DNA of 49,096 bases. It comes from a virus. Lineage: Duplodnaviria > Heunggongvirae > Uroviricota > Caudoviricetes. The position numbers were made by a program. The stretch lies in the IMG/VR virus record IMGVR_UViG_2541047773_000006; one strand, 5' to 3'. Shown piece by piece: positions 39,601 to 45,600 of this stretch (positions within the stretch are counted from its first letter, which is position 1; the number at the start of each line of letters is the position of its first letter).

Positions 39601-42600
39601 AGTGAGCGGCTGGTCAGCACGGCCAGGACGACGGAAACCACATACCGCTTCAGGCAACTGGCGCTGGGGAACTACAGGCTGACAGTCCGGGCGGTAAATG
39701 CGTGGGGGCAGCAGGGGGATCCGGCGTCGGTATCGTTCCGGATTGCCGCACCGGCAGCGCCATCGCGGATTGAGCTGACGCCGGGCTATTTTCAGATAAC
39801 CGCAACGCCGCATCTTGCCGTTTATGATCCGACGGTACAGTTTGAGTTCTGGTTCTCGGAAAAGCGGATTGCGGATATCAGGCAGGTTGAAGCCAGCGCG
39901 CGTTATCTTGGTACGGCGCTGTACTGGATAGCCGCCAGTATCAATATCAAACCGGGCCATGATTATTATTTTTACATTCGCAGTGTGAACACCGTTGGCA
40001 AATCGGCATTTGTGGAGGCTGTTGGCCAGCCGAGTGATGATGCATCCGGCTATCTGGATTTTTTCAAAGGAGAGATAGGGAAAACCCATCTGGCTCAGGA
40101 GTTGTGGACGCAGATTGATAACGGTCAGCTTGCGCCTGACCTGGCTGAAATCAGGACGTCCATTACGGATGTCAGCAATGAAATCACGCAGACCGTCAAT
40201 AAGAAACTGGAAGACCAGAGTGCAGCGATCCAGCAGATACAGAAGGTTCAGGTTGATACAAATAATAACCTGAACAGCATGTGGGCTGTGAAGCTGCAGC
40301 AGATGCAGGACGGACGCCTTTATATCGCGGGTATTGGTGCCGGTATTGAGAACACCCCTGACGGTATGCAGAGTCAGGTGCTGCTGGCGGCGGACAGGAT
40401 TGCGATGATTAATCCTGCGAATGGCAATACAAAGCCGATGTTTGTTGGGCAGGGCGATCAGATATTCATGAACGAAGTGTTCCTGAAATATCTGACGGCT
40501 CCCACCATTACCAGCGGTGGCAATCCCCCAACGTTTTCACTGACACCTGATGGTCGACTTTCTGCGAGAAATGCGGATATCAGCGGTAACGTGAATGCGA
40601 ACTCCGGGACGCTCAATAATGTCACGATTAACCAGAACTGTCGGATTCTGGGAAAACTGTCAGCTAACCAGATTGAAGGTGATATTGTCAAAACGGTGGG
40701 AAAAGCCTTTCCGAGAAATGGCAGTTATGCCAGCGGTACAATAACGGTCACTGTGTACGATGACCAGGCTTTTGACCGTCAGATAGTCGTCCCCCCCGTT
40801 CTGTTTCGCGGTGGTAAGCATGAAAACTTCAACAGCAACAACCAACAGTCATACTGGTATTCAACCTGTAAGCTGCAGGTGCTGAAGAACGGACAGGAAA
40901 TCTTTCAGCAACCCGCGACGGATGTCAGCAGGGTATTTTCATCAGTCATTGATATGCCTGCCGGACACGGCCATGTCACCCTGACTTTCAATGTTTCTTC
41001 ATATGGTGCAAATAACTGGACGCCAACGACCAGTATCAGCGACCTTCTTGTTGTCGTGATGAAGAAATCAACAGCCGGCATCAGTATCAGTTGAATTTTA
41101 AAACCCAAATTCGGGCACCAGAAATGGTGCCTTTTTTATTTGTGGAGTGAATATGGCAGTACAGATTTCAGGTGTGCTGAAAGACGGTGCAGGAAAACCG
41201 ATACAGAACTGCACCATTCAGCTCAAAGCAAAACGTAACAGCACCACAGTTGTGGTGAACACGGTGGCCTCAGAAAATCCGGATGAAGCCGGACGTTACA
41301 GCATGGATGTTGAGTATGGCCAGTACAGCGTCGCCCTGCTGGTTGAAGGTTTTCCGCCTTCACATGCCGGGACCATCACCGTGTATGAGGATTCTAAGCC
41401 GGGGACATTGAATGATTTTCTGGGCGCTGCAACAGAAGATGATGTTTGTCCGGAGGCACTGTATCGTTTTGAAAAGATGGTGGAAGAGGCGGCACGCAAC
41501 GCTGAAGCCGCCTCTCAGAGCGCAGCGGCAGCAAAGAAATCAGAAACAGCAGCGGCATCGTCCAGGAACGCGGCGAAAACATCAGAGACGAATGCAGGTA
41601 ACAGCGCGAAAGCGGCAGCTTCTTCAAAAACAGCCGCACAAAACGCAGCAACAGCGGCAGAACGTTCAGAGACAAATGCCCGTGCGTCAGAAGAAGCCTC
41701 CGCAGACAGTGAAGAGGCTTCCCGCCGTAATGCAGAGTCAGCCGCTGAAAATGCCGGAGTCGCCACCACAAAAGCGCGGGAGGCCGCAGCAGACGCAACA
41801 AAGGCCGGGCAGAAAAAGGATGAGGCTCTGTCGGCAGCGACACGAGCTGAAAAGGCGGCAGACCGCGCAGAAGCCGCAGCGGAAGTGACTGCAGAGCCCT
41901 GTGCGAATATAGTGCCGCCGCTGCCTGATGTGTGGATACCGTTTAACGATTCACTGGATATGATTGCGGGTTTTTCTCCGGGCTATAAAAAAATAGCTAT
42001 TGGTGACGATGTGGTTCAGGTCGCCAGTGATAAACAGGTTAATTTCAGTCGCGCATCAACGGCAACATATATCAACAAATCTGGCGAACTGAAAACGGCG
42101 GAAATTAATGAGCCGCGATTTGAGTGTGATGGCCTGCTTATTGAGGGACAAAGAACGAACTACATGCTCAATTCGGAAAGTCCAGCCAGCTGGGGGAAGT
42201 CATCAAACATGGATGTGCCCGAAACCGGGACGGATAGTTTTGGTTTTACTTATGGAAAGTTTGTCTGCAACGATTCTCTGGTTGGGCAAACTTCGGCTAT
42301 TAATATGGCATCAATTGCTGCAACAAAGTCAGTTGATGTCTCAGGCGATAACAAGTACGTGACAACCTCATGCCGTTTTAAAACAGAACGACAGGTAAGG
42401 TTACGTATACGGTTTGATAAGTATGATGGTAGTGCAACAACTTTTCTTGGCGATGCGTACATTGATACGCAAACGCTTGAAATTAGTATGACAGGTGGTG
42501 CTGCCGGCAGAATTACGGCACGAGTCAGGAAGGATAAGACCACGGGCTGGATTTTTGCAGAGGCAACGATTCAGGCAATTGATGGTGAGTTAAAAATAGG

Positions 42601-45600
42601 CTCTCAGATACAGTATTCTCCTGGGCAGGGTGGGGCAACAGTATCTGGTGACTATATTTATCTTGCCACCCCACAAGTAGAGAATGGGCCGTGTGTATCA
42701 TCATTTATTATTTCAGGAGGCAGCGCAACGACAAGAGCCAGTGATTTGGTTAGTATCCCCACCAGAAATAATCTTTATAAGTTACCATTTACTTTTTTAC
42801 TTGAGATTCATAAAAACTGGGATATTGCACCAAACGCCGCACCCCGCGTGTGGGATATAGCAGCAGCCAATACCGGGCAATCAGCAATTGCAGCAATCAA
42901 CAGAGGTAGTGGTAAGTTATATATGAGTCTGTCAAACCCTTCAGGCTCGTATGTTAATAGCGCAGCGACAGATGTATTTGCAGAGAAAACCACATTTGGA
43001 TGTATTGCAAAAGCTGATGGTCACTTTCATGTGGTGACAAATGGTAAAGCGGTTAATGAAGTTTATTGTGAATATAATGGCGTGACCGCTGATAAAAATA
43101 TCCGATTTGGAGGGCAGACGAATACTGGAGAACGACATCTGTTTGGCCATATTCGCAATTTCCGCATATGGCATAAAGAATTAAATGACAGGCAATTAAA
43201 AGAGGTCGTATGAAAGATTTAACTTTGAAGTTTCATGACAAACTGCAGTTTAAGGCCTTCCTGTCATCTCTTGGCTGGGCGGAAGATGAAGACCTCCAGA
43301 ATAAACTGTTAGTTGATGAAATTGGTTTCACCTACACAGAAACAGGGGTAACAGAAGAGGGAGAACCTGTCTGTATCCGGAATGATGGTTATTTTGTCAA
43401 CATTCGCATTCTTGATGACTTGTTTGATGTTTCTGTATTCTCTGATTATGTCGTGGAGCTGGAAACACCGCTTCGGGAATGGAGCTGAAAGGAGGAAATA
43501 ATGGATATAAGCCCCTTACTTCATGCACTTTGTGCTGTGGCTGCGCAGATACTGGTTGGTCTTTTTACCGGAAACTGGGCTTACGGAGCGATAGCCGGTT
43601 GTACGTTCTTCATTGCGCGTGAACATACCCAGGCAGAATATCGCTGGATTGAAATGTTCGGGCATGGCAAGCGAATGAATATGCCGTGGTGGGGCGGTTT
43701 TGATCCGCGAGCTTGGGATGTGGCAAGCCTGATGGATTTTGCTGTGCCGGTGGTGGCGTGTCTGCTGATCTGGCTGTTGGTTAATCGCTAACGTCATCAT
43801 GTCAGGGGAACACAGCAGGAGCTGGTTTTACATAAAAAAGCCCACCAGTGAAGTGGGCAACAGGAATGATTAATTATCTCAAAGAGAAACATCATGTTTC
43901 TCTTTGCAACTTCTAACATAAAAATGTGGAGAAATAATGGAACTTATATTAATTGGTGATTATATAACCAATCCCTTATGCAAAACAATATAGTCATTTA
44001 TACCTAGCTGGTCTTATGCATACATCTAAACAGGTGTATTACGTAATGAAACAGACTGGCGAATATGTTTGAGCAAACTCCACCGAACCGCAGACGTTAT
44101 GGTCATGTTGCATAGTGTTTGGGAATATAAAGAATTATATATGAGTTTGCTGTTTGTAACCTGAAAAACAATAACGAATGTTATAATAAACTTGTTTGTT
44201 GTGCTGCTTTCACATTTTCTCATTAATCTTACCAGTAATATTTTTGTTGCTTTGTTGTTTCTATTTTTTTATAAAAAAGAGGTGGTGTAGAGGAGGGAAT
44301 ACAGTGGATAAAAAACTAATTACATTTTTGTGCACACTTATAATTACTGGTTGCTCGAATGGGATCGGTGATTCACCTTCCCCTCCGGGAAAAAATGTAG
44401 AATTGGTTGGAATCCCTGGACAAGGTATTGCAGTGACTTCAAACGGTGCAACTCCAACACTTGGGGCCAACAACACTGATTTTCCTGAAGTTTCAATAAT
44501 GAGCACTGGTGGGGCACTGCTTACTGTTTGGGCCAGACCTGTCCGTAACTGGCTTTGGGGATATACTCCGTTTGATTCAGTAAGTTTTGGAGAGAATCGG
44601 AACTGGAAGGTTGTGGATGGCAAAGATGCCGGTACAGTGAAATTTGTTAATGTTGCCCAAGGGACTTGCATGGAGGCCTTTAAAAACGGGGTGATACATA
44701 ATACCTGTGATGATAATTCGTTATCTCAGGAGTTTCAGTTACTGCCTTCTACTAATGGTAATGTGCTTATAAGAAGTAGCGCCTTGCAGACGTGTATAAG
44801 AGCAGACTATTTAAGCAGAACTATACTGTCACCGTTTGCTTTTACAATCACTCTTGAGAAGTGTCCTGGTGCAAAAGAAGAAACGCAAGAAATGCTATGG
44901 GCAATAAGTCCACCTGTCAGAGCGGCAAAACCAAATCTGATTAAACCAGAATTAAGACCATTCAGACCATTGCCAATTCCACCTCATGACAAACCTGATG
45001 GAATGGAGGGAGTATGAAAAAATTATTATTCCTGTTAATGATTTTGCCGGGTATTTCTTTTGCAGATTTAAGCGACTTTAAAGTTGCAACCTGGAATTTG
45101 CAGGGCTCAAATGCACCGACAGAAAATAAATGGAACACACATGTTCGACAACTTGTCACGGGAAGTGGTGCTGTTGATATCCTGATGGTTCAGGAGGCTG
45201 GTTCAATACCATCTTCAGCTACACTAACGGAACGTGAATTTCGTACACCAGGTATCCCAATGAATGAGTATATCTGGAATACTGGAACGAATAGCCGTCC
45301 ACAGCAGCTTTTTATTTATTTTTCGCGAACTGATGCTCTTTCTAATAGAGTAAATTTAGCGATAGTATCTAACAGAAGAGCTGATGAGGTGATTGTATTA
45401 TCACCTCCAACAGTGGCATCGCGTCCGATCATTGGAATAAGAATAGGTAATGATGTTTTCTTCTCAACTCATGCATTGGCAAACCGAGGTATAGATTCTG
45501 GAGCAATTGTTAACAGTGTTTTTGAGTTTTTCAACAGACAAACAGATCCTATAAGACAGGCCGCTAACTGGATGATTGCAGGAGATTTCAACCGTTCACC

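Follow-up and report, generated by a model that had tools for sequence, protein, structure and literature searches.

What do the two small genes do that stand behind a side tail fibre gene at the place where lambda carries tfa? This question is raised by the IMG/VR virus record IMGVR_UViG_2541047773_000006, a stretch of 49,096 nucleotides (nt) which is called the window here. The window is a lambdoid Escherichia coli prophage carrying cdt. Beyond J (37612-41094) and a hairpin three co-directional genes follow, stf for the side tail fibre (Stf) and two small open reading frames (ORFs), orf92 and orf96, named after the length of their products in amino acids (aa). An original prediction made from the sequence had described them as a host-range module, composed of a chimeric fibre and two non-canonical small ORFs. 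All three ORFs were confirmed, and the assignment as host-range module was supported. The module is an ordinary, already sequenced host-range cassette of the phage 21 type, located at the end of the late operon. Our data indicate that orf92 belongs with this family of fibre tips and that orf96 does not. As overall best explanation we tentatively propose a phage-21-type cassette in which orf92 would act on the tip and orf96 would be a late exclusion factor acting on the envelope.

The DNA of positions 41147-43787 was 98.9-99.7% identical to phage 21, mEp460, ev017, Perceval and others. In phage 21 (OL657228) the counterparts CPT_21_22/23/24 are annotated as 'side tail fiber', 'hypothetical protein' and 'putative membrane protein', in Perceval the counterparts are PERCE_22-24. 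At least 80% of the 2.6-kb region was found in 450 of 5426 complete E. coli genomes. Thus, the module is not unusual, but a cassette known at about 99% identity and common in E. coli. The exact proteins were detected on public contigs, orf92 on at least 1000, orf96 on 168 and Stf on 351, always named hypothetical. Because of this recurrence orf92 and orf96 are real conserved genes and not chance ORFs. The identity with phage 21 and Perceval stops at about position 43787, directly past orf96. Beyond the cassette phage 21, Perceval and their relatives carry sitABCD; in others DinI and then host genes are located there, and in the window cdt. The 3' end of orf96 thus marks a junction between backbone and cargo. 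A functional study of orf92 or orf96 was not found in the literature; functional data on either gene are missing from the phage 21 genome announcement, the NC101 svsR paper, the Eligo Stf-engineering paper and the Kapi1 preprint.

The fibre was examined first with regard to its attachment domain. The predicted lambda Stf-like N-terminus was verified by a Pfam scan (PF08400, E 2.9e-67, 225 bits with a cut-off of 26.6). In the structure of the lambda tail (PDB 9e7m) the Stf chain was matched by residues 1-94 (E 1.5e-49), and residues 1-158 showed 73% identity to lambda orf-401. For the adjacent segment an Ala/Ser/Glu-rich repeat block had been described. The composition was found as described, with 36% Ala, 14% Glu and 11% Ser in aa 101-252. 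The term repeat does not hold, as no tandem repeat was detected at DNA level with Tandem Repeats Finder. Identity peaks occurred at lags of 7, 14, 21 and 28, corresponding to a heptad periodicity. Because of this periodicity without a tandem repeat in the DNA, the block is probably better read as a coiled-coil rod like that of lambda Stf, to which it is 53% identical.

The C-terminal region had been predicted to differ from the lambda tip. Indeed, for the 434 residues aa 253-686 no similarity to the gp37-like tip orf-314 of lambda was obtained by BLASTP (best E 5.6). The tip consists of a conserved linker (aa 253-330), a domain similar to the head spike fibre of gene transfer agents (GTAs) and a putative C-terminal domain similar to concanavalin A (ConA). 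For the NCBIfam model NF048003 (GTA head spike fibre) the curated threshold was passed at aa 331-531, with 56.8 bits and a cut-off of 36. Residues 297-543 aligned to Rcc01080 of the Rhodobacter capsulatus GTA (RcGTA; sequence of PDB 6tb9, E 6e-10). The Pfam family Laminin_G_3 reached 24.6 bits at aa 562-683, below its cut-off of 27.6; this threshold was passed by the homologous tips of the loci L041 (39.2 bits) and L237. In PHROGs the families phrog_1419 and phrog_5939 were matched. The guanine-cytosine (GC) content, 0.58 in the rod, drops to 0.41-0.45 in the tip. Furthermore, a 704-aa protein of a non-lambdoid siphophage, the N-terminus of which is unrelated, shares only the tip with Stf, its C-terminus having 54% identity from aa 253 of Stf on. 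Because of the GC shift and the tip shared alone with this siphophage, the mosaic junction is placed at aa 253, in line with the chimeric fibre that had been predicted. Judged from these comparisons, Stf is a mosaic fibre, in which an attachment domain of the lambda type is followed by a coiled-coil rod and by a portable tip of 434 aa. This architecture is assigned with high confidence.

In the E. coli siphophage (L006-L009, 3887-7369) the gene of the 704-aa protein is located between capsid/head-completion genes and tail-tube genes. It is followed by orf92 and then by a Peptidase_S74 protein. Such a location suits a neck or head fibre and is reminiscent of the RcGTA fibre, which is attached to the head. 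The GTA head fibre has a single subunit per spike and binds capsule polysaccharide for reversible attachment, and its fold was experimentally resolved only for residues 2-10 (PMC7296036). By analogy with this one-subunit, capsule-binding fibre we infer a glycan-binding Stf tip, which would attach to surface polysaccharide for reversible adsorption and would dispense with a trimerisation chaperone of the Tfa type.

Two further observations concern the integrity of stf. In four complete genomes with 100% identity to the window the Prokaryotic Genome Annotation Pipeline (PGAP) splits the gene into two 'incomplete' pseudogene fragments, which correspond to the N-terminal domain and the head-spike-fibre domain. 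Since the reading frame 41147-43213 of the window is one uninterrupted ORF and the exact 686-aa protein is found on the 351 contigs mentioned, the split looks like an annotation artefact of the low-complexity rod. In the isolated phages 1W, 3W, 4A7, Lambda_4C10 and D2 a three-ORF mobile element interrupts stf at about nt 1934 (aa 645). Downstream of it orf92 and orf96 stay intact (phage 1W, L003 5431-8100, and others). These phages suggest that the tip is dispensable for laboratory plaque formation, as in lambda PaPa.

For the small ORFs, the original prediction had stated the absence of a lambda Tfa-like chaperone, and standard Tfa fragments were named as the result which would speak against it. 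Both ORFs occupy the position of lambda tfa, so that degenerate Tfa fragments or non-functional leftovers have to be considered. However, neither of them was similar to lambda Tfa (orf-194) in BLASTP, and neither matched Caudo_TAP (PF02413) at E values up to 1 or any other family of Pfam. The same was true for PADLOC-DB with this E value, for NCBIfam and for the search of PDB sequences. In PHROGs both proteins belong only to families with unknown function. Moreover, confident and compact folds were predicted for both by AlphaFold2 (AF2), and both are conserved over wide distances with intact frames. Thus, the reading as Tfa fragments was refuted by Pfam, BLASTP and the AF2 folds, and we regard its probability as negligible. 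The absence of a Tfa-type chaperone was confirmed with Pfam, PHROGs and BLASTP.

The product of orf92 is acidic as predicted, with an isoelectric point (pI) of 4.2, and the start of the gene overlaps the stf stop in the sequence ATGA. A hydrophobic or transmembrane segment is not present. The AF2 model shows an alpha+beta fold with a predicted local distance difference test (pLDDT) score of 90. With 0.42 the GC content is in line with that of the tip. The coupling of both genes was investigated in the 108 IMG/VR loci which contain a tip homologue and enough downstream sequence. In 106 of them an orf92 homologue directly follows the homologue of the Stf tip; the two exceptions have an stf truncated by an insertion sequence. 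This linkage comprises five deep lineages and two unrelated phage backbones, including the non-lambdoid siphophage. The overlap of fibre stop and orf92 start was also found in the loci L007, L010, L023, L233 and L234.

A profile search of 1.8 billion representatives resulted in 77 relatives of orf92, the remote ones with E values of 1e-10 to 1e-4. Three remote relatives were looked up; the gene of each directly follows that of a phrog_1419/5939 fibre, and in most cases stop and start overlap. The homologue of Comamonas and Pantoea was recognised by hhalign with the broadened profile A5 (98.6%, E 1.2e-15), while the narrow alignment A2 reached a probability of only 22% with the Comamonas proteins. 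In gene order orf92 corresponds to the fibre accessory class: it comes next on the 3' side of the fibre gene, is coupled to it in translation and is inherited together with the tip. Thus, orf92 is an obligate companion of the tip family, inherited with the tip in every lineage examined. The functional tie to this family is stated with high confidence. The gene order points to a fibre partner, a role not proposed before for the 92-aa protein. The protein is probably a dedicated assembly factor or an adaptor, and the assembly factor taken alone comes close to being probable.

The second small protein, orf96, was confirmed as hydrophobic, with hydrophobic segments at about residues 1-27 and 71-96. 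In the AF2 model (pLDDT 95) the helices 4-23, 26-53 and 74-95 form the whole chain. A lipobox or signal peptide was not found; the N-terminus MDISPLLHALC has no positively charged n-region and contains Leu at -1. The family includes 571 homologue clusters from gamma-, beta-, alpha- and deltaproteobacteria with 45-65% identity. Its 21 invariant positions are centred on AREHTQAEYRWI...NMPWWGGFD and include H8, E41, E46, R48 and R58. Family members have K/R residues in their C-terminal tails, and the phage 21 annotation of the counterpart gives a C-in topology. Hence, the invariant loop is placed in the periplasm. No recurrent Pfam family was found when the relatives were scanned member by member, and PHROGs and PADLOC contain no annotated exclusion family for orf96.

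The history of orf96 differs from that of its neighbours. Its GC content is 0.52 vs 0.42 for orf92. It stays 76-99% identical while the tip ranges from 33 to 100%. Only the ribosome-binding site and the ORF (43488/43490-43743) are shared with P22-like phages at DNA level. From these three observations, orf96 is a separately mobile unit of the cassette, apart from stf and orf92. A fibre-specific chaperone, one of the roles considered for the 96-aa protein in the original prediction, is not in agreement with this range of identities, nor with the occurrence of orf96 behind tailspikes and myophage fibres. Nevertheless, orf96 keeps a strikingly constant place behind receptor-binding genes in sipho-, myo- and podophages. 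Besides the lambdoid phages, homologues are located directly after the tailspike in the P22-like podophages Gally and 611R6, after the tail-fibre assembly gene in the myophage phiHAP-1, after an S74 fibre in an HP1-like Leclercia prophage and after a giant J in a Comamonas prophage. In an SSU5-like plasmid phage orf96 follows Stf-Stf-orf92. In a Chelativorans prophage the homologue lies between tail genes; it follows a tip-like protein, which is flanked by Dit and by additional tail genes. The full trio was detected in Comamonas and Pantoea prophages, with a tip-like protein of E 1e-21 to 1e-26. In several phages orf96 is embedded in structural operons in which start and stop codons overlap.

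The expression in a lysogen is known for Perceval, the cassette of which is 99.7% identical to that of the window. In RNA-seq of strain LF82 in LB medium, thus in one strain and under one laboratory condition, 6.7 normalised counts for stf, 14.5 for orf92 and 11.5 for orf96 were reported; the prophage background was 7.1, and 35.6 counts were the cut-off for a moron (PMC9928086). The genes sitA-D of Perceval pass the moron criteria, and no moron is listed for Gally, whose orf96 homologue tracks its own tailspike across all conditions (PMC9928086). As the LF82 counts are near background, classical conversion, also proposed for the 96-aa protein, is disfavoured, and a function during lytic growth is pointed to. 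The same applies to an exclusion gene expressed in the lysogen. Moreover, orf96 does not behave as a lysogenic-conversion moron: no promoter was found upstream, 12 nt travel with the gene and the counts are under the cut-off. In summary, orf96 is an inner-membrane protein transcribed with the receptor-binding gene, with no detectable expression in the lysogen. In macrophage-grown LF82 (Perceval PERCE_20-24) log2 fold changes of 4.85 for stf, 3.73 for orf92 and 3.0 for orf96 were listed, and only 2.05 for J; the tail genes further upstream did not rise above the detection floor (PMC9928086, S1 and S4 tables). This rise could be due to an internal promoter ahead of stf or to antisense read-through from the induced convergent sit operon.

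According to the explanation we prefer, orf92 would act on the fibre tip in the cytoplasm, either as folding/assembly factor or as adaptor. With its invariant loop facing the periplasm, the protein orf96 would act late in infection on some conserved component of the envelope. It would serve to prevent DNA entry or renewed adsorption of incoming or progeny phage. Such an exclusion role, as an envelope-acting factor made with the late genes, is the reading we favour for orf96, though with low confidence. It could also be that orf92 and orf96 represent two undescribed, widespread accessory families of phage receptor-binding modules, but taken together this seems rather unlikely. Here orf92 could be a Tfa-independent partner specific to GTA-spike-like/ConA-like tips, and orf96 could be a strongly conserved inner-membrane protein made together with the fibres and tailspikes of sipho-, myo- and podophages. 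It could act on a conserved component of the envelope, as a new class of late exclusion or anti-readsorption proteins or as a membrane-coupled step in the function of receptor-binding proteins, with domesticated copies in Aeromonas and sphingomonad chromosomes.

Several results weigh against the preferred explanation. For orf92, a chaperone specific to tip alleles was rejected, since tip domains with 33-36% identity pair with orf92 proteins of 90-99% identity, in one example 35% with 99%. As there is no co-divergence with the variable tip domains, orf92 is a partner of the tip family and not of single alleles. Its contact site may be the conserved linker or the conserved C-terminal end. Furthermore, orf92 proteins of the class with about 53% identity (50-54%) always occur with an extra fibre gene of the Peptidase_S74 type. 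This was the case in 26 of the 108 IMG/VR loci, and all 26 loci with an S74 insert contain this class. The extra gene encodes 234 or 346 aa (range 234-346 aa) with a C-terminal Peptidase_S74 intramolecular chaperone. It is inserted between orf92 and orf96 in about a quarter of the lambdoid loci (L018 4918-5958, L019, L020).

This association fits an adaptor as well as a chaperone. A structural adaptor would be kept on the tip and dock the short Peptidase_S74 protein as second fibre, resulting in a branched fibre. In the window the second fibre gene is missing, so that orf92 would serve there as a cap or as a docking site left vacant. The order tip-orf92-S74 recurs in the siphophage L006-L009, in the lambdoid E. 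ruysiae prophages L018-L020 and in the distant loci L234-L236, and L018 and L007 share 75% identity in their S74 proteins. In contrast, most loci, including the window and phage 21, contain orf92 without any S74 gene, and the correlation between orf92 class and S74 may be simple linkage. An adaptor is a serious competitor of the chaperone reading, with more reasons for doubt than for acceptance.

The two small genes also occur separately, orf92 without orf96 in L006-L009 and L233-L237 and orf96 without orf92 in Gally, 611R6, phiHAP-1 and others. For orf96 the exclusion role is argued from gene position and analogy only, and a match in PADLOC is missing. Its many invariant polar residues would also be in keeping with an enzyme or with a housekeeping role in the membrane. 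In addition, syntenic homologues outside of phages were identified in five Aeromonas species (L015, L021, L025, L027, L028), located between the genes of pirin and of a RIO1 kinase. In metagenome-assembled genomes of sphingomonads (L060, L063, L064) a homologue lies downstream of ligA and overlaps its 3' end. These copies could be domesticated or ancestral host copies.

Such contexts, conserved in Aeromonas and operonic with ligA in sphingomonads, speak for orf96 as host-derived cargo with a cell-autonomous envelope function, for example as small membrane enzyme or as stress/lipid-handling factor. It would then have been picked up by phages and parked at the end of the late operon without a specific tie to receptor-binding proteins or exclusion. 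The identity of 55-65% across classes of Proteobacteria with the invariant positions, the GC content unlike that of the neighbours and the location exactly at the junction of backbone and cargo are consistent with this origin. On the other hand, the expression of orf96 in LF82 lysogens did not exceed the prophage background, no own promoter is predicted for it, and of the upstream sequence only 12 nt travel along. It is also part of structural operons of several phages with overlapping codons, and the trio is kept in Comamonas and Pantoea. Host cargo is an unlikely explanation.

A third role for orf96 would be that of a morphogenesis or lysis-phase factor, serving as membrane platform or release factor for receptor-binding proteins or as modulator of lysis timing, for a full yield of fibre-bearing particles. 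It is co-transcribed and often translationally coupled with fibre or tailspike genes in four tail morphotypes, and the expression in Gally tracks the tailspike. One family member gave a weak match to Phage_holin_8 (E 0.0027). However, this match was limited to the single member and below threshold, orf96 was never found in a lysis cassette among the loci examined, and the non-phage host copies are hard to reconcile with such a role. To our knowledge, no membrane step exists in lambda-type tail and fibre assembly. We regard this role as very improbable.

The coordinates of the features are summarised in Table 1. The start of stf is likely the ATG at 41153, because the phage 21 annotation agrees and the 'MAVKISG' of lambda Stf matches. 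A pattern scan predicted no sigma-70-like promoter ahead of orf92 or orf96. With Rfam the region 40900-44400 gave a sub-threshold match to DapZ at 43837-43912 as sole result (24.3 bits, gathering threshold 56, E 0.34). It overlaps the hairpin beyond orf96 and is probably due to chance. The cargo 3' of the cassette starts with a gap of 34% GC (43792-44303), followed by cdtABC, an alpha/beta hydrolase and ompT.

Table 1 Features of the fibre cassette and its borders (positions in the window)
Feature	Position	Strand	Basis or remark
Terminator-like hairpin in the J/stf interval	41113..41132	+	Pattern scan; phage 21 annotated with a terminator at the equivalent place
stf, 686 aa and stop	41153..43213	+	Intact ORF; alternative GTG start at 41147
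N-terminal tail-attachment domain of Stf, aa 1-131	41153..41545	+	PF08400; PDB 9e7m; lambda orf-401
Ala/Glu/Ser-rich rod, aa 101-252, probable coiled coil	41453..41908	+	Composition, heptad periodicity
Portable fibre-tip module, aa 253-686	41909..43210	+	NF048003; PDB 6tb9 sequence; PHROGs phrog_1419 and phrog_5939
orf92, acidic soluble alpha+beta protein, 92 aa	43210..43488	+	ATGA overlap with stf stop
Spacer with AGGAGG ribosome-binding site of orf96	43489..43500	+	Read from the sequence
orf96, three-helix integral membrane protein, 96 aa	43501..43791	+	AF2 model; 12 nt past orf92
GC-rich terminator-like hairpin beyond orf96, at the AT-rich cargo border	43840..43858	.	Site scored on the minus strand

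Retargeting of lambda-derived particles makes use of exchanged and engineered side tail fibres, and for this purpose it is useful to know which small genes have to accompany a tip. If orf96 is a late exclusion factor or an envelope enzyme, a function would be assigned to more than 500 sequence clusters which are now only hypothetical, and the recurrence beside receptor-binding genes of very different phages would be explained. For the cdt prophage itself the cassette is standard and previously deposited, and only marks the junction of backbone and cargo.

In comparison with known systems, the feature is a known and common cassette with accessory genes hypothetical by annotation, a variant of the theme of a fibre gene with accessory genes. 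Phage 21, mEp460, ev017 and Perceval contain the same three genes with the same order and overlaps. Phage 21 and Perceval differ by the cargo, sitABCD instead of cdtABC, alpha/beta hydrolase and ompT, and Perceval by lom, which is not present between J and stf in the window. With the Stf/Tfa system of lambda (orf-401, orf-314 and orf-194) the attachment domain, the Ala-rich rod, the position after J and the general plan, in which small accessory genes come after the fibre gene, are common. The lambda tip orf-314 is unrelated, and neither small ORF of the window is Tfa-like. GhsB/Rcc01080 of RcGTA is homologous over the 297-543 segment of Stf. In the window this domain is fused to a lambda Stf tail anchor instead of a head-spike base, and the putative ConA-like C-terminal domain is additional.

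Like orf96, Cor of phi80, N15, HK022 and T1 and Llp of T5 are small envelope proteins encoded beside the receptor-binding gene. Cor and Llp are outer-membrane lipoproteins which block FhuA, and T1 and T5 are precedents for the expression of exclusion proteins in lytic growth. A Cor-like protein had been considered for orf96 in the original prediction; in family and architecture orf96 is not Cor-like, since it is a three-helix integral membrane protein without signal peptide or lipobox and without a match to an exclusion family. The likeness would be one of purpose only. As orf96 is 55-65% identical across bacterial classes, its target cannot be a variable porin. Other small inner-membrane phage proteins are HK97 gp15, T4 Imm and P22 SieA, to which no sequence relationship of orf96 was found. 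HK97 gp15 is said, in work of Cumby et al. 2012, to be encoded within the lambdoid tail gene cluster and to block DNA entry. SieA of P22 is described as an inner-membrane superinfection-exclusion protein (PMC10883804). HK97 gp15 and SieA are made from the prophage, whereas orf96 stays at background in LF82 lysogens.

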